A DNA stretch of 64,000 nt from Candidatus Daviesbacteria bacterium (GTDB taxonomy: Bacteria > Patescibacteriota > Microgenomatia > Daviesbacterales > UBA10151), in NCBI GenBank assembly GCA_016176335.1, contig JACOXI010000003.1, positions 6,920 to 70,919 of the forward strand, given 5' to 3'. Numbering within the stretch: the first letter of the stretch is position 1; each line of letters starts with the position of its first letter. Below, piece after piece: positions 4,149-49,847 of this stretch. The position numbers were made by a program, and so were the translations under genes. The notes beneath the pieces are model-generated. The model searched no databases and was not told the DNA's origin. It worked only from the letters and a program-made list of their open reading frames with translations.

Positions 4149-4604
4149 ATGCGGAAAATAACACCATTTTTAAAGGAAAATCTGTTTCTTTTAGTGGTGA
4201 TTTCGGTACTGGTAGCTTTGAGTACAATTTTTATTATTTGGAACAAGACTGTCTTTTTCTCCACCAAAACCGTGACGCCACCTCAAATTCCTCTGGCAAA
4301 CCCACCAATCCAAACACAAAGCCAGCTGCCTTTGACACCTCTACCACCAGCAGCGGAGGCCAACAAGACAGAAGTTTTTTTGGAAAAAGTGCGTGAGGCT
4401 ATATCTGCAGTTGTATTTAGAGGATTGGGAAAGAGTGTTGAGCCAACCCCTACCCCAGGGGTAAGTTCGCAAGGCAGTCCTACGGCAAATGAAGCAGGAA
4501 GCGTTCCCCTGGGCACAAAACCCTCCCAAGACAGTGTAGATACAGCTTCTACAGCAACTGAACCTAAGAGTGCATTTTCACCAAAGCCTGTGAGAATACC
4601 ATGA
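4149..4604 (+). CDS. Membrane-anchored Pro-rich protein
   Basis: It has an N-terminal TM helix followed by a Pro/Thr/Gln-rich extended region. It is translationally coupled to the downstream gene by an ATGA overlap. Confidence 0.3.
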   Translation: MRKITPFLKENLFLLVVISVLVALSTIFIIWNKTVFFSTKTVTPPQIPLANPPIQTQSQLPLTPLPPAAEANKTEVFLEKVREAISAVVFRGLGKSVEPTPTPGVSSQGSPTANEAGSVPLGTKPSQDSVDTASTATEPKSAFSPKPVRIP

Positions 4605-6705: not shown

Positions 6706-6739
6706 AGAGTCATCAGCTATCAGACGTCAGTCGTCAGAC

Positions 6740-7129
6740 ATGAATACACATAAATTTAGAAAACTGAAAGTTTGGCAAAGATCAATTCAATTTGTAACTT
6801 TAATCTATAAAATTACTACTAAGTTTCCGAAAGAAGAAAAATATGGACTAGTAGATCAAATAAGAAGGGCTGCTGTGAGTATTTGTCTAAATATTGCCGA
6901 AGGCTCGGGATCAGGCTCTGATGCAGAATTTGTTAGGTTCTTAAGAATAGCACAGCGATCAGCTTATGAAGTAATTGCTGCATTAGAAATTACAATTAAT
7001 CTTAAAATGACGAACAAATCGGCATTAGATGGTGCTATAGTGGAGGTAGACCAGTTAAGCGCCATGCTTACTGGACTTATTAAAAGTCTGAAAGCTGACA
7101 GGTCCGATGTTAAATCGGACCGATACTGA
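6740..7129 (+). CDS. Four-helix-bundle protein (TIGR02436, '23S rRNA intervening sequence protein' family)
   Basis: 'KLKVWQRSIQFVTLIYKITTKFPKEEKYGLVDQIRRAAVSICLNIAEGSG...' is characteristic of this family. The ORF is flanked by inverted GTCAGTCGTCAG motifs. Confidence 0.75.
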   Translation: MNTHKFRKLKVWQRSIQFVTLIYKITTKFPKEEKYGLVDQIRRAAVSICLNIAEGSGSGSDAEFVRFLRIAQRSAYEVIAALEITINLKMTNKSALDGAIVEVDQLSAMLTGLIKSLKADRSDVKSDRY

Positions 7130-8847: not shown

Positions 8848-8921
8848 GTTTCAAATAGATTTATGATTTATGAGATATGAGTTATGATTAAATTCATAAA
8901 TCTTAAATCATTGTTCATAAA

Positions 8922-9830
8922 TCACTTTTCCCTTTCCACCATATATTGCACCATTTCCGAAAATAACTTTCTCATTTTGGCATCAGAAGTAATCTTTGGT
9001 ATTACTCTTTTTGCTCTAAAAGCATATTTTAACGCTTTGGCCTCTGCCTTGTCCACTGATTCTACTTCCCCATCCAAAATATCATCTCTAATCTGAAAAG
9101 CAATCCCTGCATTCTCCCCGAATTCTTTTATCCCGCGAAGCCTTGGCGAAGTGGGACCTGCTCCTGCCAGAATTGCTCCGAGTTTAAGAGGGCCTGAAAT
9201 AGTATATCTGGCTGTTTTAAGTTTAGCTGTAAGCTTCGGGTCAGCATGGGCAACATCAAGCATTTGTCCTATGGCAGTATCCAGCATTGTTTGGGAAAAA
9301 AATCTTAAGGCCTGGTTTTTTAATTTATCTTCAAAGTTGCTTTCAGTAATAATTTTTATTGCCAGAAAAAAGCCTGCATCTGCCAAAGTGATGGCCTGCT
9401 CCACTCCTACGCGCTTATACAAGGAGGGCTGACCACGTCTTTTGGGACTTTGATCAATTATGTCGTCATGGGCCAAAATGGCAGCATGAAATATCTCATA
9501 AGCTGCAGCAATTTTAATAATAGAGCTTTCAGCTGTCAGTATCGCTTCGCCCGCCTTTGGCGTGGCTTCGCTGTCAGCTTTCAGACTTTTTTTGTCTTTG
9601 TCTGATTGCTGATAGCTGATAGCTGATGACTCTTTTGCAATCTCATATCCCAACACCACCAAAGTTCCCCTGATTCTCTTGCCTCCCTTGCAGGCTTTGA
9701 TGAATTTGTCAACCAAAGGCAATAGACTTCCGGAAGTCTTGCCAACCCCATTCCTCCATTCTTTTAACAATCTCTTTAACTCTTTATCAATGTGTTCAAC
9801 TGTTTTTTGACTAAATATCTTAAAATCCAT
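8922..9830 (-). CDS. Polyprenyl (geranylgeranyl/farnesyl) diphosphate synthase; carries an in-frame repeat insertion
   Basis: The first Asp-rich motif is 'AHDDIIDQSPKRRG'. A ~95-bp repeat-derived insert encodes 'SYQQSDKDKKSLKADSEATPKAGEA'. Confidence 0.85.
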   Translation of the reverse strand: MDFKIFSQKTVEHIDKELKRLLKEWRNGVGKTSGSLLPLVDKFIKACKGGKRIRGTLVVLGYEIAKESSAISYQQSDKDKKSLKADSEATPKAGEAILTAESSIIKIAAAYEIFHAAILAHDDIIDQSPKRRGQPSLYKRVGVEQAITLADAGFFLAIKIITESNFEDKLKNQALRFFSQTMLDTAIGQMLDVAHADPKLTAKLKTARYTISGPLKLGAILAGAGPTSPRLRGIKEFGENAGIAFQIRDDILDGEVESVDKAEAKALKYAFRAKRVIPKITSDAKMRKLFSEMVQYMVEREK

Positions 9831-12063: not shown

Positions 12064-13233
12064 ATGGTAGAATTGCCTTTCATGAAAAGCAAACTTTCTC
12101 TTCGCGACTTTCCTTCCGCTCAAAAAAGACGCCAGTTTTTAGAAAAAGAGTTAAAACTAGACTTGGACAGTCTTGGTAGTTTCACTTTTTCAGAGGAAGA
12201 AGTCACCGGTAGAAATATAGAAAATCTAATTGGAGCAACACATATTCCTTTGGGTATCGCTGGTCCACTCAAAATCATAAATCATAAATCATCAATCATA
12301 AATCACTTTATACCATTGGCCACTACCGAAGGAGCATTGGTAGCTTCTTTATCCCGCGGCTGCAAGGCCATCACAGAAAGTGGCGGGACAGAAGTTTTGG
12401 TGGAAAATATCGGTATCACCCGCGGCCCGGTATTTAGGACTGAAAGCTTGCAGCATGGACAACAAATCAAAAAGTGGGTGGAGCAAAACTTCACCAAGTT
12501 GGCCAAGGTATCAAAAAGTACTTCTTCCCATCTGAAATTACTGAAAGTAGAACCAGCCATGGTGGGACGTAATTTGTGGCTTCGTTTCTATTTTGATACT
12601 GAAGATGCCATGGGCATGAATATGGCAACAATTGCCACAGATGAGGCAGTGAAACTAATTGAAAAGGAAACAAAAGCTAAGTGTATATCTTTGGCAGGAA
12701 ATTATGACATTGACAAAAAGCCCTCTTGGCTGAATTTCATTTCCGGGCGGGGTAAAAAGGTCTGGGCAGAAGCTGTCTTACCCAAAAAAGTGGTCAGGGA
12801 AGTGCTTAAAACTACGCCGGAAAAGATGGCCGAGGTAGTCTATAGAAAATGCTTGCTGGGTTCAGCAGTCAGCGGTTCATTGGGCTTTAATGCTCATTTT
12901 GCCAATATACTCTCCGCCATCTTTCTGGCCACCGGCCAAGATCCCGCTCATGTGGTGGAAGGCAGTTTGGGAGTGACCACTGCCGAGGTTATGCCCAATG
13001 GCAACTTATATTTCTCCGTCTATCTGCCATCTTTGGTGGTGGGAGTAGTTGGCGGAGGAACACATCTGCCTACCCAAAAAAAAGCCTTAGAAATTATGCA
13101 GGTGAACAATGTGCTAGAATATACTCGGGCTGTGGGAGCAGCTGTTATTTCTGGTGAAATTTCATTAATTGCCTCTCTTTCGGAAGGAAGTTTGGCAAAA
13201 GCACACCGGAAACTGGGTAGAAAAGGAAAATAG
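12064..13233 (+). CDS. hmgA: Hydroxymethylglutaryl-CoA reductase (class I, archaeal/eukaryotic type)
   Basis: 'ENLIGATHIPLGIAGPLKI...TTEGALVASLSRGCKAI' matches. The track ORF starts at 11992 inside the upstream gene, and an in-frame ATG at 12064 is the more likely start. It contains an in-frame 'atcataa' tandem repeat that encodes 'IINHKSSIINH'. Confidence 0.85.
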   Translation: MVELPFMKSKLSLRDFPSAQKRRQFLEKELKLDLDSLGSFTFSEEEVTGRNIENLIGATHIPLGIAGPLKIINHKSSIINHFIPLATTEGALVASLSRGCKAITESGGTEVLVENIGITRGPVFRTESLQHGQQIKKWVEQNFTKLAKVSKSTSSHLKLLKVEPAMVGRNLWLRFYFDTEDAMGMNMATIATDEAVKLIEKETKAKCISLAGNYDIDKKPSWLNFISGRGKKVWAEAVLPKKVVREVLKTTPEKMAEVVYRKCLLGSAVSGSLGFNAHFANILSAIFLATGQDPAHVVEGSLGVTTAEVMPNGNLYFSVYLPSLVVGVVGGGTHLPTQKKALEIMQVNNVLEYTRAVGAAVISGEISLIASLSEGSLAKAHRKLGRKGK

Positions 13234-13383
13234 GAGCGAAGTCACAAGTAATCAAAAAATGTAGTGCAGTTGAGCGCACCACTTATTCAATGTTTCGAAA
13301 CCAGAATCTGGCGCGAAACAAACACCAAGTGAGCGATCCGGTCGCGCGAACGGTTTTTTGTACTGTGACGAGCGACAAACATT
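13234..13383 (+). repeat. ~145-bp dispersed repeat element, copy 1 (fills the hmgA / HMG-CoA synthase intergenic region)
   Basis: It is near-identical to 26611..26759 and 57806..57960. It shares 'agcgaagtca...caaaaaatgt.gtgcagttgagc...ggcgcgaaac...gcgagcgacctggtcgcgcgagcggttttttg...tgacgagc'. Confidence 0.8.
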
Positions 13384-14427: not shown

Positions 14428-14538
14428 AGGAATGTAGAATTCAGAGTTTAGAGTTCAGAATGGTGTAGAATTTAGAATTCTTAAATTGATTATAAATTCT
14501 AAATTTAATTCTGAATTATGAATTCTTAATTATAAATT

Positions 14539-15672
14539 ATGAAAGTAAAAGTATTAGGAACAGGTCTTACTAAGTTTGGAGAGCATTGGGACAAAAGTCT
14601 TAAAGATTTGGCTTTTGCTGCTGCTAAAGAAGCCATTGAGGACTCAGGACTTGACACTGACAAAATAGATGCTGTCTTTGTTGCTAACATGCTCCATGGA
14701 AAGCTCACGGGACAGGATCATCTGGGAGCTTTAGTTGCTTCAAATTTAGGAATTGTTGGCGGAGCTTTTAGGGTGGAAGCAGCTTGCGCTTCAGGGGGAA
14801 TCGCCATACATTTGGCCATCCAATCTCTCATGTCTGGAACCTATAAAAATGTACTGGTGGTGGGAGCTGAAAAAATGACCGATGCAGGAGCCTCCGAGAT
14901 TTCATCAGCTTTAATGGGTGCAGGTAGTGAGGATGAAAGAAAAGCTGGGCTGACCTTTCCTGCTTTATATGCCCTGATGGCCAAAGCCCACATGCAAAAA
15001 TATGGCACCACAAGATCGCATTTAGCCTCTGTTTCTGTTAAAAATCATTATCATGCTTCCTTAAATGAAAAAGCTCAATTCCCATATGAAGTAACTTTAG
15101 AAAAAGTCTTAGAAAGCCCAATCATCTCCTCTCCTTTTACTCTTTTTGATGTCTGTCCTGTTACTGATGGGGCAGGTGCTGTAGTCTTAAGTTCAGATTC
15201 CACCCAACCTGGAGTTTTTATTACTGGCTCTGCTGTGGCCACAGATACTGTAGATCTTTCCCAAAGAAGTAGCCTAATAGAAATTGCCGCCACCAGGCAG
15301 GCTGCAAAAGAAGCTCTAAAACAGGCTGGGGTCAAAATAAGTGACATCAAAGTGGCAGAAGTTCATGACTGTTTCACCATTGCAGAAATTTTGGCCATGG
15401 AAGATTTGGGCTTTTGCCAAAAAGGCGAAGGTGGAAAGTTCATCCAAAAAGGCTCAACTAAACTTGGAGGAAGCTGTCCTGTCAATACTTCTGGAGGACT
15501 TAAGGCTTGCGGTCATCCTGTGGCAGCAACAGGAGTAAAACAAATTATAGAAATTACCCGTCAGCTACAAGGAAGGGTGGGTAAAAGACAAGTTGCAAAT
15601 GCAGATGTTGGTTTAACACACAATGTAGGAGGAACTGGAGGAACAGTGGTGGTACATGTATTACAAACTTAA
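14539..15672 (+). CDS. Acetyl-CoA acetyltransferase (archaeal-type thiolase)
   Basis: 'MKVKVLGTGLTKFGEHWDKS' is the thiolase N-terminus. It has the C-terminal 'GHPVAATG' motif. Confidence 0.85.
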   Translation: MKVKVLGTGLTKFGEHWDKSLKDLAFAAAKEAIEDSGLDTDKIDAVFVANMLHGKLTGQDHLGALVASNLGIVGGAFRVEAACASGGIAIHLAIQSLMSGTYKNVLVVGAEKMTDAGASEISSALMGAGSEDERKAGLTFPALYALMAKAHMQKYGTTRSHLASVSVKNHYHASLNEKAQFPYEVTLEKVLESPIISSPFTLFDVCPVTDGAGAVVLSSDSTQPGVFITGSAVATDTVDLSQRSSLIEIAATRQAAKEALKQAGVKISDIKVAEVHDCFTIAEILAMEDLGFCQKGEGGKFIQKGSTKLGGSCPVNTSGGLKACGHPVAATGVKQIIEITRQLQGRVGKRQVANADVGLTHNVGGTGGTVVVHVLQT

Positions 15673-15773
15673 AACTCAAATGTCAAAACTCAAAACTACA
15701 ACTATAATCTCAAAAGTTTTAAGATTTAAGATGCAGATTTGCAATTTGAGATCTAAGATTTGAGATAAATATT

Positions 15774-17655: not shown

Positions 17656-18639
17656 ATGATCAAACAAGTGCAGGTGTCTGCACCGGGAAAATTAATGTTA
17701 TTTGGGGAACATGCTGTTTTATATGGCAGGCCCTGCATTGTCACAGCTGTGGGACAAAGAATGAAAGCTACAGTTACACTCACTGATGAGCCTATTTTTG
17801 AGCTTAATGCTCCTGATGTAGCGGTTGTACACTACCAAAAACTCATGCACGAGCTTGGCCGGGGAGAAATCCCCAAGGGAGCAAAATTTGTAGAAATGGC
17901 TGTGTATAATTTTTATAATAATTATAAAAGCTATATTAAAGAGTCCGGAATTCAAGTTACCACTACTTCTGACTTTTCCTCCCAGTTTGGCTTTGGCTCC
18001 TCCTCTGCTGCTACTGTTTGCGTGATCAAAGCTTTATCCCAGTTAACCGGATCCAAACTTTCCAACAAAGCTATTTTTGATTTATCCTACCTGACAGTTT
18101 TGGATATTCAAGGCAAAGGTTCCGGCTTTGATGTGGCAGCAGCTGTATATGGTGGAACTTTGTACTTTGTGATTGGAGGCAAGGTGATTAAACCATTAAA
18201 CCTCCCTTATTTACCTCTCATAGTGGGTTATTCAGGGATTAAGGCTGATACAGTAGATCTTATAAATCAGGTTTCCCGGAAAGCTGCCAAATTTCCAAAA
18301 GTAATAGATGACATCTATACTTCCATCGGGGAATTAGTTCTTCAGGCTAAAAAAGCTATCCTAAAACAGGATTGGGAAACTTTAGGAGAACTGATGTATT
18401 TAAACCAGGGATATTTGTCTGCTTTAGGAGTAAGCAGTGGCAAATTGGAATCCATGATCCATGCTGCCAGAGAAGCTGGAGCATATGGAGCTAAATTATC
18501 CGGAGCAGGAGGCGGAGACTGTATGATAGCCTTGGCTCCTTCTAAATCCAAAAATGGTGTTGAGGAGGCCATAAACAAAGCTGGTGGACAAACAATAGAT
18601 GTCAAAACAAATGTTCCCGGTGTTAGAATAGAAAAATGA
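17656..18639 (+). CDS. GHMP kinase, mevalonate-kinase paralog (candidate phosphomevalonate kinase)
   Basis: 'SAPGKLMLFGEHAVLYG', 'FGFGSSSAA' and 'KLSGAGGGDCMIAL' are GHMP motifs. Confidence 0.7.
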   Translation: MIKQVQVSAPGKLMLFGEHAVLYGRPCIVTAVGQRMKATVTLTDEPIFELNAPDVAVVHYQKLMHELGRGEIPKGAKFVEMAVYNFYNNYKSYIKESGIQVTTTSDFSSQFGFGSSSAATVCVIKALSQLTGSKLSNKAIFDLSYLTVLDIQGKGSGFDVAAAVYGGTLYFVIGGKVIKPLNLPYLPLIVGYSGIKADTVDLINQVSRKAAKFPKVIDDIYTSIGELVLQAKKAILKQDWETLGELMYLNQGYLSALGVSSGKLESMIHAAREAGAYGAKLSGAGGGDCMIALAPSKSKNGVEEAINKAGGQTIDVKTNVPGVRIEK

Positions 18640-24351: not shown

Positions 24352-24963
24352 TCAATTAAACTGATTTTGGGCTTTTTCCAAGCCCTGTTCCAAAAGAATA
24401 TCTAAAGCTTTAACAGCCTGTTTTATCATATGTTTTACTTTTGATTTTTCAGAATGCCTGAATGGTTCCAATACAAACTTATTTGTATCAACATGAGCGT
24501 GTTTATGTTCTGAACTTTGAGTTCGTAAATTGCCGATACCTAATCTTACTCTGATAAATTTATCTGTACCTAAAGAATTAATTATGGATTCCACTCCATG
24601 ATGTCCTGCTGCTGCTCCTCCCAATCTGACTTTAATTTTTCCCAAAGGTAAATCCAAATCATCATGAATCACAATTAGATCGGTAGTCGACTCGCCTCGC
24701 GAAGCGGGTAGTTTGTAGTATGTAGTAAGGAGTTTTACAGCTATCCCAGAGTTATTCATATAGGTTTGAGGTTTTACAAGGGTTAAGCGGGAAGCGTTAA
24801 GGGTGAAGTCTAAAATTTCAGACTTAAATTTTTCTTCATATTTCCAACTTTCCCCTTGCCCCTTTACCCTTTTCCCTAACTCCTCCACCACCATAAACCC
24901 CAAATTGTGCCTGACTTTGGTATATTTTTCCCCTGGATTTCCCAAACCAACTATTAATTTCAC
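24352..24963 (-). CDS. pth: Peptidyl-tRNA hydrolase; carries an in-frame GC-rich insert
   Basis: 'MKLIVGLGNPGEKYTKVRHNLGF' matches. An insert 'LPASRGESTTDLIV' comes from the 'tcgcctcgcgaagcggg' motif. Confidence 0.9.
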   Translation of the reverse strand: MKLIVGLGNPGEKYTKVRHNLGFMVVEELGKRVKGQGESWKYEEKFKSEILDFTLNASRLTLVKPQTYMNNSGIAVKLLTTYYKLPASRGESTTDLIVIHDDLDLPLGKIKVRLGGAAAGHHGVESIINSLGTDKFIRVRLGIGNLRTQSSEHKHAHVDTNKFVLEPFRHSEKSKVKHMIKQAVKALDILLEQGLEKAQNQFN

Positions 24964-25800: not shown

Positions 25801-26607
25801 TTATGTTTTTAAAACATCTAAGATTTGGTTGTGCAAGACACCATTTGATGCCACAATTTCTAATCTTTTTTTTGACCAGTTAATTTTTGCTCCTTTGCTA
25901 TCTGTTACTTTACCACCTGCCTCAGTCACAATAATTGCCCCTGCGATACAATTCCAAATATTAGCTTCATTTGCAAACCCGTCAAAAGAACCTCTGCCTA
26001 TTAATGCCATCATTAATACATCCCCTCCCAAAGCAAATGGGTAACGGATTTTATCAATCAAAGGCAAAATATACTTTTGAGTTTTACTCATCCTTTTTTC
26101 ACGGTGGGCAAAATCTATTCCCAAAATTGCCCCATCCAATTTTTTTGTTTGAGAGACCTTTATCTTCTTACCATTTAGATATGCACCTTTACCTATAGCA
26201 GCATGGTAAAGATCTTTCGGTACAACATGATAAATAACACCCAAGATAGGATTATTTTTGTGTAATAAACCAATGGAAACTGTATATGTTGGTAAACCCA
26301 CTGAAAAGGCAATTGTCCCGTCCAAAGGATCAATAACCCATGTGTAGTCTGATCCTAAATCTGAGATACCTTTTTCTTCGGCAATATAGTTAAATTTGGG
26401 ATAGTTTTTGTGCAGAATCTTTAAAATTGCCTTCTCTGATTCTAAATCTGCTGCTGTTACAAAATTACTGTGATCACCATTTTTATTTTTTTTATCTAAG
26501 TCTTCACCAAGATATTTAGAAATTATTTTCCCTGCCTCAAGTGCAGCCTGTTTTGCTACTTTCAAAAATTTTAGATCGTTAGATCGCAAGCTTTGCTTAT
26601 CATTCAT
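25801..26607 (-). CDS. Inositol monophosphatase family protein (tandem paralog)
   Basis: 'WVIDPLDGTIAF' is the IMPase motif. The track start (GTG at 26631) lies inside the repeat element. The internal ATG ('MNDKQSL...FLKVAKQAALEAGKII') aligns with the paralog N-terminus. Confidence 0.75.
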   Translation of the reverse strand: MNDKQSLRSNDLKFLKVAKQAALEAGKIISKYLGEDLDKKNKNGDHSNFVTAADLESEKAILKILHKNYPKFNYIAEEKGISDLGSDYTWVIDPLDGTIAFSVGLPTYTVSIGLLHKNNPILGVIYHVVPKDLYHAAIGKGAYLNGKKIKVSQTKKLDGAILGIDFAHREKRMSKTQKYILPLIDKIRYPFALGGDVLMMALIGRGSFDGFANEANIWNCIAGAIIVTEAGGKVTDSKGAKINWSKKRLEIVASNGVLHNQILDVLKT

Positions 26608-26610
26608 ATT

Positions 26611-26759
26611 AAGTAAAGATAGCGAAGTCACAAGCAGTCAAAAAATGTTGTGCAGTTGAGCATACCACTTTATTCATGACCGATTCCATTCCATGGCGCG
26701 AAACGAACACAAGCGAGCGACCTGGTCGCGCGAGCGCTTTTTTGCGCTGTGACGAGCTA
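26611..26759 (+). repeat. ~145-bp dispersed repeat element, copy 2 (fills the PRTase/IMPase intergenic region)
   Basis: It aligns end-to-end with copies at 13234..13383 and 57806..57960. Its 'tgacgagctag' end supplies the PRTase stop codon. Confidence 0.8.
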
Positions 26760-27398
26760 GCTTGTCAATAATTGTACCACCTCTTCATCTGATACAGGCT
26801 CAAATTTGTGATAAAACTGGCCAACTGCCTGGAAATACTCAGGTGTTTCCAAAACCACTACCTCCCCGAACTCTCCTAACTCCCTGATGATTTTCTCTAC
26901 TGGTTCTTTACTTGCCACAGGTATGGCCAAGATTATTTTTTTAGCTTCATGCCTTTTTAAATACCTGACAGCAGAAAGTGTTGTTGCACCTGTGGCAATC
27001 CCATCATCAACAAGGATTACAGTTTTACCTCCGACATTAAGAGGTTTTTTTTCTCGCCTATATAAATCCTCTCTCCTTGTTATCTCTTCTACCTCATTTT
27101 TCACTGTTTCCTTCAAATCATAAATCGTTGATCCTAAATCATCAATCAAATTCTGATCCCACACCACCTCACCATCCGGATCTACTGCTCCCAAAGCCAA
27201 TTCAGGCTGGGTCAGGGCACCTATTTTTCTGGTCACAATAATATCCAAGGGTAAGTTTAATGATTCTGCTACTGCGGATGCCACCACCACTCCTCCTCTG
27301 GGAATACCAAGTACCAGGACATTATCTTTACCTTTGTAGTGTTTAAGATGTTTTGCGAGCAATTTCCCGGCTGATTGTCTATCTTTAAAAATCTTCAT
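26757..27398 (-). CDS. Phosphoribosyltransferase (type I PRTase fold)
   Basis: 'VILVDDGIATGATTLSAV' is the PRPP-binding motif. Confidence 0.7.
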   Translation of the reverse strand: MKIFKDRQSAGKLLAKHLKHYKGKDNVLVLGIPRGGVVVASAVAESLNLPLDIIVTRKIGALTQPELALGAVDPDGEVVWDQNLIDDLGSTIYDLKETVKNEVEEITRREDLYRREKKPLNVGGKTVILVDDGIATGATTLSAVRYLKRHEAKKIILAIPVASKEPVEKIIRELGEFGEVVVLETPEYFQAVGQFYHKFEPVSDEEVVQLLTS

Positions 27399-27474: not shown

Positions 27475-28845
27475 CTAATCGAACAACCCCAATTGTGGGG
27501 CTTGATCTTCCTTCTTTTCTTCGGCTCCGTCCTCTCTCTCGTTCCATATCTTCACCACCCCATATACTCCATCATAGCCCGGATCAATCACCAAATCTGC
27601 CTGTCGCACTTTTCCCACTCCTTCTGCAATCTTGGGGCCTGATATTTTGGCTATTTCATCTAAAGATGTTTTGGTCAAAACCTTTATCTCTCCTCCCAGA
27701 TTAGTCACTAACTTTTTATACTCTAAAATCACCTTTTGGGTTGTTGGAGCAGTATGAAAACTTTCAGCAATAATTTGTATTAAAGGCACCAGCATTCTAT
27801 ATCCCGGCCTAGTTGGAAAAGTTTTGCTTTTTATTACTCCTCCTTCATTGTCCATTGTCAATTGTCCATTGTTTCGCGAAGCGAGAACTTCCACCCTCTC
27901 CATTACCCCCACAGTCAAACCTCTACCGCATTTAGGGCAGATCGTACCTTTGGTCTTGGTCTCTTCCGGAGTATACTTTATATTACAATTTCTATGCCCT
28001 GTGTAATGATACTTTCCTTCTTCAGGATAAAATTCTATAGTTCCTGCAATTTTTTGCTCTTTTATTGTCATAAATAACCCTGAATAACCCTCACTTATCT
28101 CCCCATCAAATACTGTTGCTTCTCTGCCTAAATTTGGTAAGGAGTGGGCATCTGAAAAAGAGATAATTGATCTGTTGTCAAGCTCTTTTATCCTCCAGTT
28201 CATGGCCGGGTCAGAACTTAATCCTGTTTCTATTCCATAAATATACTGTGTTAGATCCTCAAAACATTCTTTCAGAGAATCATAGCCTGACTCGGAACCA
28301 AAAATTCCAAACCAAGGAGTCCAAGCATGAGCCGGAATAAAAAGAGCTTTTTCCGATGCCTGCAAGGCCAAAGACAGTAAGTCTTTTGAAGGTATTCCCA
28401 CAATAGGCCTGCCATCAGAACCTAAAGTTGCTCTTCTTGATAAAAGCTCCTTTTGAAATCTCTCCGCGGAAACAAAATCAGGCATAAAAACCAGATTATG
28501 TACTCTTCTTCCCCTACCTTTCTGGGAATACATTGAAGCAATTTCCACAGTTAAAACAAATCTTACCCCCCGCCTTTGGCGAGGCTCGCTCGCCTCGTGG
28601 CGAAGCAACGGGCCTTCGGCAGCTTCACCTTTTCCGCTTTCCCCTTTCATACTTAAAAATCCAGACCCATCCTCTGTCAAATCTTTTTTAAGCTCCGCAA
28701 ACCAAAGTGGGTGCAAAAAATCCCCTGTACCCAAAACATCAATGCCTTTATACTTTGCCCATTCAACCAAATTTGGAACATTTAATTGGGGGGAGCAGGC
28801 CCGGGAGTATTTGGAGTGAATATGCAAATCAGCCACATATGCCAT
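27475..28845 (-). CDS. PHP-domain nuclease, endonuclease Q (EndoQ)-like; carries two in-frame repeat inserts
   Basis: The N-terminus has the PHP motif 'VADLHIHSKYSRA'. A Zn-finger 'CPKCGRG' follows. This architecture matches archaeal EndoQ. The inserts are 'KGESGKGEAAEGPLLRHEASEPRQRRG' and 'ASRNNGQLTMDNEGG'. Confidence 0.55.
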   Translation of the reverse strand: MAYVADLHIHSKYSRACSPQLNVPNLVEWAKYKGIDVLGTGDFLHPLWFAELKKDLTEDGSGFLSMKGESGKGEAAEGPLLRHEASEPRQRRGVRFVLTVEIASMYSQKGRGRRVHNLVFMPDFVSAERFQKELLSRRATLGSDGRPIVGIPSKDLLSLALQASEKALFIPAHAWTPWFGIFGSESGYDSLKECFEDLTQYIYGIETGLSSDPAMNWRIKELDNRSIISFSDAHSLPNLGREATVFDGEISEGYSGLFMTIKEQKIAGTIEFYPEEGKYHYTGHRNCNIKYTPEETKTKGTICPKCGRGLTVGVMERVEVLASRNNGQLTMDNEGGVIKSKTFPTRPGYRMLVPLIQIIAESFHTAPTTQKVILEYKKLVTNLGGEIKVLTKTSLDEIAKISGPKIAEGVGKVRQADLVIDPGYDGVYGVVKIWNEREDGAEEKKEDQAPQLGLFD

Positions 28846-28849
28846 GAGG

Positions 28850-29383
28850 CTATTTTAGCATACCTTGTCTTTTGGCTAATCTTTTCTTGAATAGATTTTC
28901 TCTAAAACCACCTTCCCTCACAAATTTTTCTTCTAACCACCTCAGTTTTTGGTCAAGCAAACGGTTGGTTTGGTTAATGAGGCAGATAATGGCATTAGCT
29001 GCTTGTTCTGGGTTTTCAATATAATTTTTATAATCGTTATAACTATTATAATTGTTATAAACTAAGCTTCTTACTTTTTTAGCCTCTGGGGAATCCTTTT
29101 CCCAAAGTTTTAACCCCCTCTGCCTTAAAAAATCCAAATAATCATTTAAAAGTTCTTCTAAACTTCCCCTTGCTACTCCTAAAAGTTTAATTCTTCCTTC
29201 CAGGCTTTTTTGCAGATAACCTTCAGGAATATTTTGTTTTCCGGATCTGGCAGCCTGTTCCATCTGATCTTTAGTCCTGGATTTATAATCAATGTATCTT
29301 TTAACAAACTCAACAGTGAAGTCATAAATAATCTCAGCTTGTTTGAAGAAAGGAAGAGATTTGTAACCACCGGTTTGATTCAT
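28850..29383 (-). CDS. Four-helix-bundle protein (TIGR02436 family, long form)
   Basis: 'LPFFKQAEIIYDFTVEFVKRY' opens the protein. It has the C-terminal four-helix-bundle suffix region. An N/Y-rich segment comes from a 'ttataa' repeat duplicated upstream. Confidence 0.7.
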   Translation of the reverse strand: MNQTGGYKSLPFFKQAEIIYDFTVEFVKRYIDYKSRTKDQMEQAARSGKQNIPEGYLQKSLEGRIKLLGVARGSLEELLNDYLDFLRQRGLKLWEKDSPEAKKVRSLVYNNYNSYNDYKNYIENPEQAANAIICLINQTNRLLDQKLRWLEEKFVREGGFRENLFKKRLAKRQGMLK

Positions 29384-29424
29384 ATAACCGTTATAATTTT
29401 TATAATTATTATAACTTTTATATT

Positions 29425-31158
29425 CTACTTTCTAAACTGCAGTTTGTACATTTCCATCAGCTCTTTCAGGGTGGTGGCATCTTCGGCCTTCTTGTCTGCT
29501 TCCCTAAATTTGACCAATCTGGGAAAACGCAGGGCCAGACCGGCCGTATGAAGCGGGCTTTTAGTGATCTCATCTGCCAGAACCTCAATCACAATCTTTG
29601 GTTCCACCCACACACTGGGAGTAATCAATGACCTTACTCTGGCTGGTTTACTTTTAACCTTCAACTTCTCACCTTTAACTTTTATCTCTCTCCACTCTTC
29701 ATCTGTCAACCCTGTCCCAATTTTGGAAACTGTTACAAACTCATCTTTGTCCTGATCATAAACTCCCACGAGGAGCGCTCCTGCTCCAAAAGCAGATCTT
29801 TTACCTTTACCAAAAATATATCCTAAAATCACACAATCTATGGTATCTTTTAACTCTCCGTCAGAGTGTCTTTTTAACTTGACCCAGTTAAAATTCCTGG
29901 CCCCTGCCTCATACTTGGAAGTAGGCCTTTTGACAATTAACCCTTCCAAACCCTTAGTCAGTGCGTCATCAAAAAGCTCCTGTATCCTTTCCACTGAATC
30001 TGTGATCTCTCCTGGCTGCGGAATTAAAACTTCGTGTCCCTTAATTCTTGATTCTAACTGCTTGATTCTTACTTTAAGAGGCAAATCCATTAAAGATTGG
30101 TCATCCAAATACATCACATCAAATACAAATGCCTTAAGCGGTAATTTTACAGCCATCTCCTCTATTCCGTACTTACGACGCCTTTTGGTGGTTTCCTGAA
30201 AAGGTAAAAACTCTTCAGACTGCGGATTAAAAGCCAAAGCTTCTGAATCTAAAATTGCAGTTTTTGCCGATACCTGAGATAAAACTCCTTTAATAATATC
30301 CGGAAACATAGGAGTTGTTTCTTCTAAATTTCTGGAAAAAAGTCTGACCTTGCTACCGTCTTTATGAATTTGTACCCTGAACCCATCGAATTTTTGTTGG
30401 ACATGGGCTTTCCCTCCATATTTTTCCAAAATGGTTTTGGCATCAGGTAATCTTTCTGCAAGTTGTGATCTAATTGGCCTTCCCACAGTTACATCCAAAC
30501 CTTGAACTCCCCGAAGTCCCTGACTCCACAAAACCTCCCCAATCAAACCTAAATCAGACACTTTATTATATGCACCTTCCAAAAGCTTTCTTTTACTTTT
30601 ATCACCCAATTTAGACTTGGCAAAAGCATCCATAATAGTGGGATCACCAATTCCTAACCTTGAGGTTCCCAAAGGGATTCGTACCAGGTGTTTGGCAGAA
30701 ACTCCATCCACTTTATTCAAAAGACTAGAAAGAGCTGTAACCTTCTTTTCAACAGCCCCTTCCCCTGTGGTTTTGGCAATTTCTGTTAAAGTTTTAAAGA
30801 CTTCTGCAACTGACAGAGATCCTTCGACTCTCCCTCGACTAGCTCGGGATCGCTCAGGATGGCTCGCAAATTTGCTCGCCACTATCCCCAAATCCCCTAA
30901 CCTCCCATACTCTTTCAGTACTTGCTCACGTTCTACCCCATAAGCCCGGGCCATTGCTTGAGCAACTAATTTTTCGCTCATCCCAATCTCAATTGGTTCA
31001 TAAAAAGGGGCCACCCGTCCTTGCAGTAAATAAACAACCTCCGCTATTTCACGAGACTTTACTTCATCAAAAAGCTTGGACATGATATCAATAAGCGTAA
31101 GGCGGGAAGAGGTTGATTCTAAATTTTCAAAATACTGCGCCAGTTTACCAAATGTCAT
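29425..31158 (-). CDS. lig: ATP-dependent DNA ligase (archaeal/eukaryotic LigI-like)
   Basis: 'KFDGFRVQIH' is the KxDG adenylation motif I. The length and OB/ligase domains fit. It carries an in-frame insert 'ASHPERSRASRGRVEGS'. Confidence 0.9.
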   Translation of the reverse strand: MTFGKLAQYFENLESTSSRLTLIDIMSKLFDEVKSREIAEVVYLLQGRVAPFYEPIEIGMSEKLVAQAMARAYGVEREQVLKEYGRLGDLGIVASKFASHPERSRASRGRVEGSLSVAEVFKTLTEIAKTTGEGAVEKKVTALSSLLNKVDGVSAKHLVRIPLGTSRLGIGDPTIMDAFAKSKLGDKSKRKLLEGAYNKVSDLGLIGEVLWSQGLRGVQGLDVTVGRPIRSQLAERLPDAKTILEKYGGKAHVQQKFDGFRVQIHKDGSKVRLFSRNLEETTPMFPDIIKGVLSQVSAKTAILDSEALAFNPQSEEFLPFQETTKRRRKYGIEEMAVKLPLKAFVFDVMYLDDQSLMDLPLKVRIKQLESRIKGHEVLIPQPGEITDSVERIQELFDDALTKGLEGLIVKRPTSKYEAGARNFNWVKLKRHSDGELKDTIDCVILGYIFGKGKRSAFGAGALLVGVYDQDKDEFVTVSKIGTGLTDEEWREIKVKGEKLKVKSKPARVRSLITPSVWVEPKIVIEVLADEITKSPLHTAGLALRFPRLVKFREADKKAEDATTLKELMEMYKLQFRK

Positions 31159-33403: not shown

Positions 33404-33485
33404 GATTATAGCTATCAGTCTTCAGCTATCAGCTTTCAGACTGTACCTAAAAATGTCTGACGACTGACGACTGAAAGCCGACGAC
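33404..33485 (+). repeat. Palindromic 'CAGCTATCAG...GTCTGACGACTGACGACTGA' element (copy A)
   Basis: It matches copies at 42343..42422 and 56706..56785. Confidence 0.7.
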
Positions 33486-33521: not shown

Positions 33522-36500
33522 CTAAGGAATGACATATTCATCCCAACTTTTGATCTGTAAATCTGCTATTTTTTTGGAAGACAAACTTGATACTAATAAT
33601 TCTGCAGCTTGAAGATTGGTGATAAGCGGAATTCCCAAATCAATACAATGCCTTCTTATCACAAATCCATCCGTTTCTCCTTTGGAAGATCCTCCCACGG
33701 AGATATTGATGGCAAGATCAATATGACCTGCTTTCAGTAAGTCCAAAACCGACGGATGTTTTTTCTCTGAAATTTTGTAAACTCTTATACTACTTATTCT
33801 ATGCTGTTTTAAAAACTGATGTGTGTGTTCTGTGGCATAAATTTTAAATCCTAAACCGAAGAGCAGTTTGGCAGATTCCAGAAAATCCAGCTTATTTTTC
33901 TCTCCCCCAAGTCCCAAAAATACACTTTTCTTTGGCATTTTAAAGCCGGTTGCCAGCAGTGCTTTAAGATAGCCTTCCTCTAAGTCATCACCAAAACAGG
34001 CCACCTCACCGGTTGAGGACATCTCTACTCTTAACCTGGGATCTGCTCCTTTTATTCTGTTAAAAGAAAATTGAGGAGCCTTAACTGCTACATAATCCAA
34101 ATCTATAGTTTTAAAATCTCCCTGAATGTCCTCTCCAAGCATGACTTTTGTTGCCATCTCCACCAAGTTGTAACCGGTAACTTTGGAGACAAACGGGAAG
34201 GACCTCGAGGCTCTTAAATTAAGCTCGATCACTTTAATCTCATTATCTTTGGCTATAAATTGAATGTTGAACGGACCACAAATCTTAAGTTCTCTTAGAA
34301 TCTTTTTTGTAGCCTCTTTGATCTGTCTGACAGTTTCAAGGTAGAGTTTTTGCGGAGGCAAAACCAGCGTTGCATCACCGGAGTGAACCCCGGCATTTTC
34401 AACATGCTCTGATATGGCATAAATTAAAAGATTCCCGTTTACTCCTACTCCGTCAATTTCAATCTCTTTGGCGCCCTCCACAAATTTGGAGATAACAACA
34501 GGATGCTCACTTAAAATATCCGCTGCCTGTTTTAGATATTTTTTAAGCTCAGAAGAAGAGTAAGCAACATTCATGGCAGAGCCTGACAAAACATATGAGG
34601 GTCTGATCAAAACAGGGTAGCCAATTTTTCTTGCAAACTCTAGAGCATCACCCAAACTTTTAAGACTCATCCAGGCAGGTTGTTCAATGTTTAACTTATC
34701 CAAAATTTTGGAGAATTTATGCCTATCTTCTGCTCTGTCTATAGAAATAGGTGAGGTGCCGATAATTTTGTAGCCTGCTTTGTAACATTTTAAAGCTAGG
34801 TTGTTTGGAACTTGTCCACCAAAGCCCAAAACTAAACTGCCTTTTTCAATATCATAAATATCGGACACTCTCTCGAAAGTTAATTCTTCAAAGTATAATT
34901 TATCGGCCAAATCATAATCTGTGGAAACAGTTTCCGGGTTACAATTTATGATGATTGTTTCCAAACCTCTCTGCCTTAAGGTTTGTGCAGCGGTAACGCA
35001 GCACCAATCAAACTCCACTGACGAACCAATACTGTATGGTCCGGAACCTAAAACAATCGCTTGGTCCTTGAGTAGCTTAGGTGACTTAAGTGACTTAATA
35101 TTTGCCTCTGACTCTTCACCATGATAGGTCAAATATAAATAATTGGTCTTTGCCGGAAATTCTGCTGCCAAAGTATCTATGTGCTTGACCTTTGGGATAA
35201 TGCCATGTTTTTTTCTAAATTTCCTGACCTGTTCTTCTGTTGTGTTAAAAGCTTTTGCAATCACTCTATCTGAAAAACCCAGCTTCTTTGCTTTTGCAAT
35301 CGTCTGATTGCTCGCCTCGCTGAAGCTCTGGCGAAGCGGGCTGAAAGCTGAAGGCTGAAGGCTATCTTCAAACTCCGCCATCTCTTTAATTTGATGCAAA
35401 AACCAGGGATCAATGCCTGTTTCCTGATAAATTTTCTCGACACCCTCTCCTTTTGAAAACTCTTTGGCAATTGAGAAAAGTCTTTGTGATGTGGGAAGGA
35501 GTGTGCTACTATCAACTCCGTTTGATAAGCCGTCTTGCCCTATCTCCAGCATTCTAATAGCTTTTTGCAAGGCCTCCGGAAAAGACCTGCCTATTGCCAT
35601 GACCTCCCCCACACTTTTCATCTCCGATCCGATAGCCTCATACGCCCCCACAAATTTTTGTAAATCCCATCTGGGAATTTTAACCACAATATAATCCAAA
35701 GCAGGCTCAAAAAAAGCAGAAGTTGATAGGGTGATCCTGTTTTTTAAGTTGGGTAAGTTGTAACCCAAAGCTATTTTGGCAGCGATATATGCTAAAGGGT
35801 AACCAGTTGCTTTTGAGGCTAAAGCCGATGAGCGGGATAGCCTGGCATTAACTTCAATTACCCGGTAATCATTATTTCGGGGATTTAGGGCAAATTGAAT
35901 ATTACACTCCCCCAAGATCCCCAAATGCTCAATAACCTGCAAAGACAGTCTTCTTAAGAAGTGGTACTGATAATTGTTTAAGGTTTGTGATGGTGCAACA
36001 ACTATACTTTCACCGGTGTGAACCCCCATTGGATCCAAGTTCTCCATATTACAAACAGTAATCTTGTTTCCATTGTTATCTCGGACAACCTCATATTCAA
36101 TCTCTTTCCAGTGTTTTAAATACTCTTCAACAGTAATTTGGGGGACATGTTTTAAGGTGATTGACACCATTTTTACTAAATCTTCCTTATTACTCACCAC
36201 CCCTGATCCCAAACCTCCCAAGGAAAAACCTGATCTGACAAGAAGGGGGAACCCCAAATTTTCAGCAATTTCTTCTGCTTCTTTGACGGTTTTTGCAAAT
36301 CCACCTTTTGGAACTTTAACAGCAATTTTTGAAAGTGCTTTTGCAAACAATTCCCTATCTTCGGTTACTTCAATACTTCTAATCGGTGTTCCTAAAACTT
36401 TTACACCGTATTTTTTAAATATATCTTTTTTATCTAAAGCAAGGCCGCAATTTAAAGCAGTCTGTCCCCCGAATGAAAGGAAAATTCCATCAGGTTTTTC

Positions 36501-42288: not shown

Positions 42289-42346
42289 TAAAAAAGCCCT
42301 TGCAAGTTCCCAAAGATTAACTTTAGAAACTTACAAGGGCCTTATT
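42289..42346 (-). terminator. Terminator/attenuator-like hairpin immediately upstream of argH RBS (minus strand)
   Basis: On the minus strand 'aaggcccuuguaaguu' pairs with 'aacuugcaagggcuu' and is followed by 'uuuuuuaa'. It lies between the leader region and the argH SD. Confidence 0.45.
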
Positions 42347-42422
42347 TCAGCTTTCAGACTTCAGCTATCAGCTTTCAGACTTTTGTAATTGTCTGATGAC
42401 TGACGCCTGACGACTGATGACT
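42343..42422 (+). repeat. Palindromic CAGCTATCAG/GACTGA element (copy B) in the argH leader
   Basis: The sequence is 'cagctttcagacttcagctatcagctttcagactt...gtctgatgactgacgcctgacgactgatgact'. Confidence 0.7.
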
Positions 42423-45488: not shown

Positions 45489-46385
45489 TTATTCTACACT
45501 CTTTTGACACTTTGGGCAAAAGTATGTGCCGCGGTTTCCAAGTTGTATCTTTCTGATATTTGTTTTGCATACCTTACATTTGTGTCTGTCTCTGCCATAA
45601 ACGTATGCATAGTCTAAAAAATAGCCTTTATGGCCTTCTGCATCCACAAAATGAGCCTTGGTTGATCCACCGTGCTTTATCCCATCATTTAATGACTGCA
45701 CGATACCATGGTGTAGTTTTTTAATTTGCTCATCAGACAGTTGGGAAACTTTAGTTCTCGGGTCAATTCCAGCATCAAAACAGCCCTCATTAGCATAGAT
45801 ATTGCCTACTCCGGAAACTACACTCTGATCCATAATTGCCACCTTAACAGGCATGCTTTGGTGTTTTAGAAGATTATTTTTTAAAACTGCCCAGGTAAAA
45901 TCCTTTGCCAACGGCTCTGGCCCCAAACTATTTAAGGATTTGTCAATTGTCAATTGTCCATTGTCAATTACTCTTACCCACCCAAACCTCCTTTGGTCAT
46001 TAAAATATAAATGTGAACCATCAGAAAAGCTAAAGATAACTCTAGTATGGTTATTCGGTAATGGTCCAACCATATCTTCAGTGGGATGACCACCAATAAA
46101 TCTTCCCCCTTTACCCTTTCCGCTTTCCCCTTTCCATACCAATTGACCAGTCATCTTCAGGTGAAAAAGTAATGATATCCGATAATCGATATCCGATATA
46201 CCTCCTAAATCTATCCCTAGATATTTAGCTTTTCTCCAAACATTGAACACTTTTTTACCCTGAACTAAATTTGGATTTCCAATGAAAGATTTAGAAGAAA
46301 GTATTTGGATTTTGATAATTTTTAATCCAATTATCCTTTTTTGTAATCCATTTTTAATGGTTTCTACTTCTGGCAACTCCGGCAT
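45489..46385 (-). CDS. fpg: Formamidopyrimidine-DNA glycosylase; carries two or three in-frame repeat inserts
   Basis: 'MPELPEVETI' is the N-terminal catalytic Pro2/Glu3. The C-terminus has a CxxC...CxxC zinc finger. The inserts are 'VIDNGQLTIDKSLN', 'WKGESGKGKGGRFIGG' and the tandem 'GISDIDYRIS'. Confidence 0.85.
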   Translation of the reverse strand: MPELPEVETIKNGLQKRIIGLKIIKIQILSSKSFIGNPNLVQGKKVFNVWRKAKYLGIDLGGISDIDYRISLLFHLKMTGQLVWKGESGKGKGGRFIGGHPTEDMVGPLPNNHTRVIFSFSDGSHLYFNDQRRFGWVRVIDNGQLTIDKSLNSLGPEPLAKDFTWAVLKNNLLKHQSMPVKVAIMDQSVVSGVGNIYANEGCFDAGIDPRTKVSQLSDEQIKKLHHGIVQSLNDGIKHGGSTKAHFVDAEGHKGYFLDYAYVYGRDRHKCKVCKTNIRKIQLGNRGTYFCPKCQKSVE

Positions 46386-48827: not shown

Positions 48828-49847
48828 TCAGGAGAGTTTGCCTTGGCGGGCAAGAGAGACTTTTTTTGTAACTTCCAGGAAAGCTTTTTGGGCAGCAGGA
48901 ACATTTTTCTCTTTCCCAGCTCGCCTCGCTCCGCGGGCGGAGCGGGCCCAAATTTCCAAAGCCTCGCCTTGTAAGGCTCTGGCAAAAGAGAAAGATAATT
49001 GCCATGGCCCGCCTATGTTATTTATTGCCTGCAGATTATCTGTTGCCATATCAGCAGACTGACCTCCGGATAAAAATACCACTCCCGGAAGCTCTTTTGG
49101 CACTGATTCCAAAAGCGCATCAACTGTTGCCTTTGCCACCTCATCTGCTGTTGCCTGTTTGGGGTTGTCCTCACCGGCTGTGGCCATATTGGTTTTCAAC
49201 AGCAATCCTTCCAAGGCTACTTTATGAACATTAATCCTTTCAAAAACAGCCTTCAGAGTTTGAGCTGTAACTTGTGCGCACTTTTCCAAAGTGTGAGAAC
49301 CGCCTCTTATTACTTCCGGCTCAATAATTGGTACCAGTCCTGCATTTTGAGTGATGGCTGCATAACGGGCTAAAACCTCTGCATTTGCCTCCAAACAAGT
49401 CTGTGTTGGGATTTCCTCCCCTATGGTTATCACGGCTCTCCATTTGGCAAACTTGGCACCCATTTGGGCATATTCTTCCAACCTTCCTCGCAATCCATCC
49501 AATCCCTCGGTAATTTTTTCTGCCGGAAAATTAGCAAAATCTACCACTCCTTTATCCACTTTTATTCCAGGGATAATTCCTTTATTTTCCAGATATTTTG
49601 GCACAGATACTCCCTCAATCTCCTGTCTGATTGTTTCATCATAGAGGATTACTCCTGATAGAAATTGTTCCACCCCGGGAGTAGTAAAAAGCATGCTTCT
49701 GTAAGCTAAATTGGTTTGGGGGGTTGAGGTTAAGCCAATCTTATCAAACCTTTTTTGGATGGTTTTGGATGACTCATCAGCTGCCAGAATACCTTTGGTT
49801 GGATTAAGTAAAGCAGAAACTGTTTGTTTTAATTGGTTAATATCCAT
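48828..49847 (-). CDS. fba: Fructose-bisphosphate aldolase, class I; C-terminal in-frame GC-rich insert
   Basis: 'GILAADESSKTIQKRFDKIGL' is the class I FBA N-terminus. The insert is 'ARSARGARRAGKEKN'. Confidence 0.8.
   Translation of the reverse strand: MDINQLKQTVSALLNPTKGILAADESSKTIQKRFDKIGLTSTPQTNLAYRSMLFTTPGVEQFLSGVILYDETIRQEIEGVSVPKYLENKGIIPGIKVDKGVVDFANFPAEKITEGLDGLRGRLEEYAQMGAKFAKWRAVITIGEEIPTQTCLEANAEVLARYAAITQNAGLVPIIEPEVIRGGSHTLEKCAQVTAQTLKAVFERINVHKVALEGLLLKTNMATAGEDNPKQATADEVAKATVDALLESVPKELPGVVFLSGGQSADMATDNLQAINNIGGPWQLSFSFARALQGEALEIWARSARGARRAGKEKNVPAAQKAFLEVTKKVSLARQGKLS

Follow-up and report, generated by a model that had tools for sequence, protein, structure and literature searches.

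Short dispersed repeats in two variable loops of the endonuclease Q gene from a Candidatus Daviesbacteria genome

The window analysed here is a stretch of 64,000 nucleotides from a Candidatus Daviesbacteria contig (JACOXI010000003.1, assembly GCA_016176335.1). On its minus strand, an open reading frame (ORF) encodes a protein of the endonuclease Q (EndoQ) family, in which an initial annotation of the DNA had located three inserts. The three stretches were found again, with coordinates shifted by a few bases, and they are organized into the following pieces, which fall in two variable loops of the protein (sites 1 and 3).

27475-28845, minus strand: EndoQ gene, host of all the pieces; intact, 456 aa; identified from PDB 5zb8, TIGR00375, AlphaFold2 (AF2)/Foldseek and dN/dS
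28624-28647, minus strand: 5′ part of the site 1 heptamer array (insert 2), AAAGGGG AAAGCGG AAAAGGT GAA, encoding KGESGKGE; family D8
28570-28623, minus strand: GC-rich composite insertion of 54 nt (insert 1), residues A75-R92, AAEGPLLRHEASEPRQRR; 70% GC; absent at the same codon in P0015/L001
28615-28623, minus strand: 5′ arm of the outer element of the composite, GCTGCCGAA, encoding AAE; fits the canonical GCCGCCGAA/AGCGAGCCTCGCCAAAGGCGGG of 18 metagenome copies
28591-28614, minus strand: nested module of 24 nt, GGCCCGTTGCTTCGCCACGAGGCG, encoding GPLLRHEA; loop of one of the two mini-hairpins of the outer element
28570-28590, minus strand: 3′ part of the outer element, AGCGAGCCTCGCCAAAGGCGG, encoding SEPRQRR; contains the CCGCCTTTGGCG core
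27846-27876, minus strand: site 3 heptamer array (insert 3), AAC AATGGAC AATTGAC AATGGAC AATGA, encoding NNGQLTMDNE; linker of the Zn-binding domain

The mosaic of at least three families that had been proposed comprises four: two types of heptamer array, a double-hairpin element of 30/31 nt, and a module of 24 to 31 nt.

The host gene was examined for its integrity. The product of the ORF matched the structure of the Pyrococcus furiosus enzyme (PfuEndoQ, 5zb8) with an E value of 6e-43 in a search of the PDB, and it also matched TIGR00375. The metal ligands of PfuEndoQ, H8, H10, E76, H84, H139 and D193 (PMC5961232), align to H8, H10, E101, H116, H173 and D232 of the window protein. Among 147 aligned homologs, these PHP-domain ligands are invariant or nearly so, and H234 in the adjacent conserved sDaHs motif is invariant as well. 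In the sequence alignment, the C4 zinc site of the Pfu enzyme (C249, C252, C268, C271) corresponds to H284, C287, C303 and C306; the first cysteine is thus a histidine in the Daviesbacteria clade, and the four window residues are invariant in the 147 homologs. Pairwise comparison with six orthologs gave dN/dS values of 0.07 to 0.15, which indicates purifying selection and agrees with the strong selection to keep the reading frame that had been suggested. The AF2 model built from the 147-sequence alignment reached a predicted local distance difference test (pLDDT) score of 88.3 and a predicted template modeling (pTM) score of 0.87; an earlier one, based on 28 close homologs, had a pLDDT of only 56.8. 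Foldseek superposed the better model on 5zb8/7k30 with TM values of 0.85 to 0.87 (E value of 7e-36 for 5zb8), and the model contains the PHP barrel, the Zn-binding domain as well as the helical C-terminal domain of the three-domain EndoQ fold. The window protein thus belongs to the same family as PfuEndoQ (5zb8, 7k30; PMC5961232), with the same fold and metal ligands. It differs at its loops, since site 1 has 9 residues in the Pfu enzyme against 34 in the window and site 3 is about 12 residues shorter in the Pfu enzyme. The intact ORF, the dN/dS values, the metal ligands and the confident model together indicate that the gene is neither a pseudogene, as had been considered, nor obviously an artefact, and alignment and model suggest that it probably encodes a functional endonuclease Q. 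A scan for promoters and terminators around the gene gave nothing exceeding the shuffle expectation.

At site 1, the pieces are enclosed in each other. Alignment of the DNA with locus L001, whose EndoQ (P0015) reads SMKGESGKGEG-VRF, revealed exactly 54 extra nucleotides in the window. The fourth unit of the heptamer array is completed by GGGG at positions 28566-28569, past the 54-nt insertion, and the composite therefore lies inside the fourth unit of the KGESGKGEG array (GAA/GGGG), KGESGKG itself being encoded by 28627-28647. The uninterrupted form of the array, AAAGGGGAAAGCGGAAAGGGTGAAGGGG, is found in L001/P0015. Only four islands of the window, whose overall GC content is 39.7%, reach 70% GC or more, and the composite is the most pronounced among them. 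It is itself made of two nested elements. The canonical form of the outer one, a 31-nt unit CCCGCCTTTGGCGAGGCTCGCT-NNN-RGCGGC found in 18 copies, has a reverse complement, GCCGCCGAAAGCGAGCCTCGCCAAAGGCGGG, that translates as AAESEPRQRRG; the window reads AAE-GPLLRHEA-SEPRQRRG, that is, the canonical unit with 24 nucleotides added between GAA and AGCGAG. The canonical copies are devoid of this 24-nt module. Small palindromic additions, for instance CACTTTGTG and CACAGAGTG, make the loop of the 31-nt element variable. Furthermore, the EndoQ gene of the sister contig L002 carries a relative of the 24-nt module in the loop of a hairpin CCAGCC-TCT-GGCTGG, a loop that is empty in L008. The same composite occurs in other genes at L137/L138 and L140, which suggests that the 54 nucleotides probably entered the EndoQ gene as one unit, in a single insertion event. 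The picture of three separate insertions into the gene has thus to be revised: insert 1 interrupts insert 2 and was probably acquired as a whole.

Relatives of these pieces are located in other genes of the window, all on the minus strand:

9520-9635, minus strand: composite insert, in frame, in an ispA-like polyprenyl synthase gene; heptamer arrays flank a GC hairpin with its core at 9550-9571
24848-24877, minus strand: CTTTCCC-type heptamer array in the peptidyl-tRNA hydrolase (Pth) gene, related to the KGESGKG array; the same site of L002 has a GACAATG-type array
35311-35341, minus strand: paralog of the module in carB; abuts a heptamer array at 35339-35363
45940-45969, minus strand: heptamer array of MutM/Fpg encoding IDNGQLTID; paralogous to the array at EndoQ site 3
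46102-46135, minus strand: heptamer array of MutM/Fpg encoding KGESGKGKGG; paralogous to the array at EndoQ site 1
48920-48947, minus strand: paralog of the module in a class-I aldolase gene; match to the module family

The link between the EndoQ and ispA genes had been noticed through the 12-mer CCGCCTTTGGCG, which has two copies in the window (9551 and 28570) for 0.15 expected. Taken by itself, the 12-mer carries little weight, since two copies also turned up in 2 of 100 shuffles. The core common to both genes is however longer, CCCGCCTTTGGCG-N-GGCT-(T)-CGCT (about 21-22 nt), and the link is real. In ispA, the hairpin is read as ATPKAGEA, in another frame than in EndoQ; the Pfam polyprenyl_synt match runs across the insert with about 29 extra residues, and the hairpin is more stable than its shuffles (z of -2.9/-3.5). 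Metagenome contigs were then scanned with the pattern CCCGCCTTTGGCGNGGCTN{0,1}CGCT, which gave 61 contigs reducing to 54 non-redundant contexts. These contigs come from many samples and their GC content ranges from 0.30 to 0.71. The element lies at least 25 codons inside an ORF of at least 120 aa in 22 of the 54 contexts, and some other copies are near ORF ends. Leucyl-tRNA synthetase, Fpg/MutM, Mur ligase and glycosyltransferases are among the host ORFs, and all six frames are used by the 22 internal copies (5, 4, 3, 4, 4 and 2). At one orthologous site of Fpg, the element is absent from the window, present once in L120 and twice in tandem in L141. Use of six frames and variable copy number in Fpg point to insertion followed by a selection filter, and not to a selected peptide function. 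The nested module is also dispersed. Three members of its family, GCCCG..CTYCGC..GAGGCGAG, are present in the window (EndoQ, carB and the aldolase gene; 24-31 nt) for 0.0 expected, and further copies occur in L002, L062, L137 and L140.

The two heptamer arrays of the EndoQ gene have their counterparts in MutM. A 21-mer, AAAGGGGAAAGCGGAAAGGGT, is identical in MutM (46113-46133) and in the EndoQ gene of L001, and the copy of the window EndoQ differs from it by one mismatch. Moreover, the EndoQ, MutM and P0015 EndoQ copies all carry the variant AAAGCGG as second unit. Between the window and L001, the EndoQ genes have a dS of 1.48. In a neighbor-joining (NJ) tree of the orthologs from which the variable sites had been removed, the window protein groups with P0002 and P0003, which have no array, while the array-bearing P0015 and P0051 are placed elsewhere. 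To judge from these alignments, the patchy distribution of the array is more in line with a dispersed repeat that is copied from locus to locus than with simple vertical inheritance. The site 3 array has a 20-mer twin in MutM at 45946-45965. Tandem Repeats Finder (TRF) detected it with a period of 7 at 27846-27872 (3.9 copies, 90% matches). This site is about 13 aa longer than in minimal EndoQs and equally long in nearly all Daviesbacteria orthologs, whose DNA has the skeleton AATKNNN x4 with a variable triplet homogenised within each ortholog. The same GACAATK unit is found in three genes of L002. From the ortholog comparison, the site 3 array is an old, clade-wide array of constant length that evolves in concert, and NGQLTMDN is not a recent insertion.

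Length variation within the EndoQ family is restricted to three sites among the 147 homologs, and none was observed in four control segments.

Site 1, L64-F96: 6 to 52 residues, median 10, window 31
Site 2, Y254-T269: 14 to 51 residues, median 14, window 14
Site 3, A322-R346: 8 to 37 residues, median 10, window 23

All the repeat pieces of the window EndoQ thus fall in two of the three hot spots, sites 1 and 3, in line with the tolerated loop expansions that had been envisaged. In the AF2 model, site 1 is predicted between the helix 46-55 and the strand carrying the catalytic E101. Residues 73-88, which correspond to the 54-nt piece, form the sole internal stretch with pLDDT below 50 and connect strand 64-66 to strand 95-108, the latter bearing E101. 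The site 3 peptide is modeled as a small β-hairpin (331-334 and 337-340) with pLDDT of 84 to 90. In other orthologs from Microgenomates, the same sites are filled with unrelated peptides that are heptamer-derived or GC-rich.

Several other insertions were seen in EndoQ homologs. The P0052 protein has a palindromic insert of the VIPANAGIQ...LDPRLRGDD type at site 2, and the P0078 protein has a different insert (SVIASGAKQS…) at the same site. Loci L009 and L078 bear inserts of the ATLRQAQGKLPRNDG and VIASDPPAGGERGNP type. The P0086 homolog contains a full intein, which adds about 360 aa and results in a protein of 797 aa.

Heptamer arrays are not confined to EndoQ and MutM. TRF found 27 arrays of period 7 in the window for 1.3 expected, an excess of about 20-fold; the expectation was derived from 30 second-order Markov simulations, none of which gave more than three arrays. 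The arrays are short (3-5 imperfect units) and about half of them reside in Pfam-confirmed genes, among which are polyprenyl synthase, Pth, carB, polA and MutM. Of 80 Microgenomates loci, many show a similar density, though some do not. In the phosphoribosyltransferase (PRTase, 26757-27398) and Pth (24352-24963) genes, the window arrays are of GATTTAT or GGGAAAG type, whereas the counterparts in L002 (PRTase at 2778-3428 and Pth at 4219-4806) have arrays of GACAATG type at the same positions. These differences at orthologous sites indicate that arrays are replaced on short time scales.

Taken together, we think it likely that the EndoQ pieces are neutral or selfish short dispersed repeats, kept only where they are in frame and structurally tolerated, in the gene of a functional enzyme. 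Two of the three permissive surface loops of EndoQ would have been colonised by such repeats, which appear to pervade this Daviesbacteria genome and other Microgenomates. Site 1 is layered, with a four-unit heptamer array, a 30-nt double-hairpin element in its fourth unit and a 24-nt module in one hairpin loop of that element, the last two having probably arrived together; site 3 would correspond to a second type of array, old, constant in length and evolving in concert. The repeats may spread by a copy mechanism, either a transposition-like process with a preference for hairpin loops, gene conversion between arrays, or both. As neutral or selfish passengers, they would then be subjected to selection against copies whose length is not a multiple of three, which bring a stop codon or which hit a structured part of the protein, so that the in-frame copies in loops would be what is left.

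Several observations weigh against this explanation. The specific 54-nt insertion was seen in only one assembly and the cluster of the EndoQ protein has one member; the NJ tree carries no support values; and local slippage with concerted evolution could explain site 3 without any insertion. The EndoQ copy of the double hairpin folds no better than shuffled sequence (z of -0.4 and -0.9), and we therefore make no claim of a selection for a stable hairpin at this place. No transposase, REP-associated tyrosine transposase (RAYT), Y1/HUH protein or reverse transcriptase was detected among ten small ORFs of the window, to which the screen extended. No target-site duplication could be defined, with only an ambiguous duplication of 1-4 nt at the one site for which an empty allele is available. 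Finally, GC mini-hairpins were not associated with heptamer arrays in 843 kb comprising 199 perfect mini-hairpins and 338 arrays (2.5% versus 2.5% within 10 nt); this measure is crude because the 31-nt copies of EndoQ and ispA are both missing from its adjacent cases.

The pieces might also have arisen by local mutation only, through slippage, template switching or hairpin-primed synthesis, the likeness between loci reflecting a shared mutational bias. The excess of heptameric simple sequence repeats in many bacteria has been ascribed to polymerase slippage (PMC4692102), and both the homogenised site 3 arrays, orthologous and of constant length, and the palindromic additions in the loop of the 31-nt element are of the kind expected from such processes. 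However, a shared bias hardly accounts for an identical 21-mer with the odd AAAGCGG unit in two genes and in an ortholog as distant as that of L001, for a core of about 22 nt that recurs without change across 54 unrelated contexts and many samples, or for the swap of array types at the same site between sister genomes. We regard a purely local origin as unlikely. Even less probable in our view is a functional expansion, in which peptides such as the basic SEPRQRRG beside the catalytic strand were selected to improve or regulate EndoQ. Three arginines are indeed added to an enzyme acting on DNA, and the site 3 peptide has a conserved length and a confidently modeled β-hairpin. But unrelated proteins contain the same DNA element in all six frames, the insert is missing from P0002 and P0003, which are the closest orthologs, residues 73-88 are predicted to be disordered, and other orthologs have unrelated sequences in the same loop.

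The presence of arrays in several DNA-repair genes of the window raises the question of a contingency locus, where slippage-prone arrays would switch EndoQ, MutM and PolA on and off and generate mutator subpopulations. Heptanucleotide repeats are reported to mediate phase variation in other bacteria. The arrays of the window are, however, composed of 3-5 imperfect units instead of long perfect arrays, site 3 is constant in length in Daviesbacteria, and no frameshifted EndoQ ortholog was found among the 147 aligned homologs, so that we give very little credit to this idea. A misassembly or a decaying gene is the least credible explanation of all. Only one contig is known to carry this exact protein, the identical protein on record at NCBI coming from a Candidatus Daviesbacteria metagenome-assembled genome; against this stand the intact ORF under purifying selection, the invariant catalytic and zinc residues, the confident model, and the in-frame occurrence of the same repeat families elsewhere, both in further genes of the window and in independent assemblies.

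Other types of elements were considered and discarded. Inteins are domains that splice themselves out; they measure about 130 aa or more, begin with Cys/Ser and end with His-Asn, followed by Cys/Ser/Thr. The 18-aa insert starts with Ala-Ala and ends with Arg-Arg before a Gly, without these splicing residues, and no Pfam intein match was obtained; the intein-like (or intron) nature that had been evoked was thus dropped. A site of -1 frameshifting (slippery heptamer and hairpin) was rejected upon inspection, as the codon register does not fit X_XXY_YYZ. A DNA-uptake sequence was ruled out because there are only two copies in 64 kb. No known RNA family was found in the whole window at the gathering threshold.

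We compared the repeats with known systems. Rickettsia palindromic elements (RPEs) located in housekeeping genes were reportedly described by Ogata et al. in Science in 2000. For Coxiella, in-frame miniature inverted-repeat transposable elements, or MITEs, have been described (PMC5896051). Like the window repeats, both are dispersed palindromic sequences of non-coding type that are found in frame in housekeeping genes whose products still function, and insertions of this type are tolerated because they land in surface regions. RPEs and MITEs are however larger, with about 100-150 bp or more, and are found in intracellular proteobacteria, whereas the units of the window measure 24-31 nt, or 54 nt as a composite; unlike them, the window elements are GC-rich in a genome of 40% GC, nested, read in six frames, and distributed in the candidate phyla radiation (CPR)/Microgenomates and many metagenome contigs. 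The repeats are set apart from RPEs by their size and their Daviesbacteria host. MITEs are defined by terminal inverted repeats and a target-site duplication; the ends of the 31-nt element are inverted (CCGCC...GGCGG), and no duplication was seen beyond the ambiguous 1-4 nt mentioned above. Repetitive extragenic palindromic sequences (REP/REPIN; PMC3116915, PMC3733652) are likewise short, GC-rich, imperfect palindromes dispersed in the genome, sometimes as doublets. They are by definition extragenic, have GTAG or CGTC heads and are mobilised by a RAYT, whereas about 40% of the copies of the window element are intragenic, 22 of 54 lying deep in long ORFs. The 31-nt element starts with CCCGCC/GCCGCC and has CCCGCC/GCGGC as its two ends, with neither GTAG nor CGTC; no RAYT was seen among the ten ORFs screened. 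Short heptamer arrays are also formed by the TAACTGA repeats of Beggiatoaceae, Cyanobacteria and Bacteroidetes (PMC4679880). Most of these lie a few nucleotides upstream of a start codon, the position that the intergenic arrays of the window occupy too. A single heptamer dominates there and intragenic copies are few, whereas the window has many unit types and about half of its arrays inside genes.

By their size, nesting and heptamer context, the repeats most resemble the small dispersed repeats (SDRs) and tandem heptameric repeats (STRRs) of cyanobacteria, and by the way they work the RPEs and in-frame MITEs, as far as analogy goes. Cyanobacterial SDRs are said to have been reported by Elhai et al. 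in Genome Res in 2008. SDRs and STRRs are also described in two later articles (PMC5861425, PMC3116915). Common to the cyanobacterial and window systems are very small dispersed hairpin repeats (about 21-27 nt in cyanobacteria) without known transposase, many heptamer arrays, and nesting. The window repeats agree with this description, and were matched to it by description only, in their size of 24-31 nt, nesting and enrichment in heptamers. The differences are another phylum, other sequences, and a general nesting of hairpins in heptamers that has no statistical support in the 843 kb compared. No description of such elements in CPR was found in the literature searched, an absence that is no proof of novelty.

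Other repeats and possible cassettes occur in the window. Intergenic heptamer arrays occur directly upstream of start codons at 6720-6739, 8858-8889, 14430-14540, 15665-15766, 33410-33474 and 42345-42422; they often come in pairs of different unit types, and there is no obvious Shine-Dalgarno sequence between array and ATG. An element of about 145 nt is present in three copies (13231-13376, 26617-26760 and 57810-57954), two intergenic and the third within the polA ORF, between the 5′-3′ exonuclease and polymerase domains. Its terminal stem is long and shows 4-6 compensatory base-pair changes, and inside the element a GC hairpin precedes a T-run; the region 26600-26780 gave no Rfam match at E≤1. 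Between the ATP-dependent DNA ligase and EndoQ genes, a gene on the minus strand (28850-29383) encodes a four-helix-bundle protein of the 23S rRNA intervening-sequence family (TIGR02436 and TIGR04258). Since the ligase gene directly abuts EndoQ in L001 and L002, the segment 28846-29424 has the appearance of an inserted cassette. Another member of this family, at 6740-7129, immediately follows a heptamer array and gives a weak bAvd-like match. Tandem repeats of period 9, TATAATTGT and TTATAATTT, lie at 29020-29060 and 29383-29422, inside and just upstream of the four-helix-bundle gene, and a related copy is found at 17905-17937. The ligase of the window (29425-31158) is devoid of a 7-aa segment (HTAG-KMGSEAG-YALRF) found in L001 and L002, and a GC-rich stretch encoding SHPERSRASRGRVEGS near residue 100 may be another repeat-derived insert.

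If short dispersed repeats are indeed the origin of the EndoQ pieces, annotation and structure prediction of Patescibacteria proteins should expect repeat-derived low-complexity loops and should take them neither for errors nor for lineage-specific domains. Three loops of one enzyme appear to be repeatedly rewritten with a limited set of repeat 'alleles' that does not follow the gene tree. The elements are far smaller than any with a known transposition mechanism; the thousands of CPR genomes offer many filled and empty orthologous sites, such as site 1 of EndoQ or the H2TH domain of Fpg, through which the movement of such tiny repeats could be studied. A broader proposal, which we put forward only tentatively, is that an as yet undescribed kind of ultra-small mobile DNA exists in CPR/Microgenomates and in other uncultivated lineages sampled from groundwater and sediment metagenomes. 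Its members would be GC-rich hairpin units of 24-31 nt that insert in hairpin loops or heptamer arrays, spread between lineages and are read in any frame, together with genome-specific heptamer 'cassettes' that overwrite permissive loops by copying or gene conversion. If true, part of the diversity of protein loops in these reduced genomes would be written by repeat dynamics, and not by point mutation.

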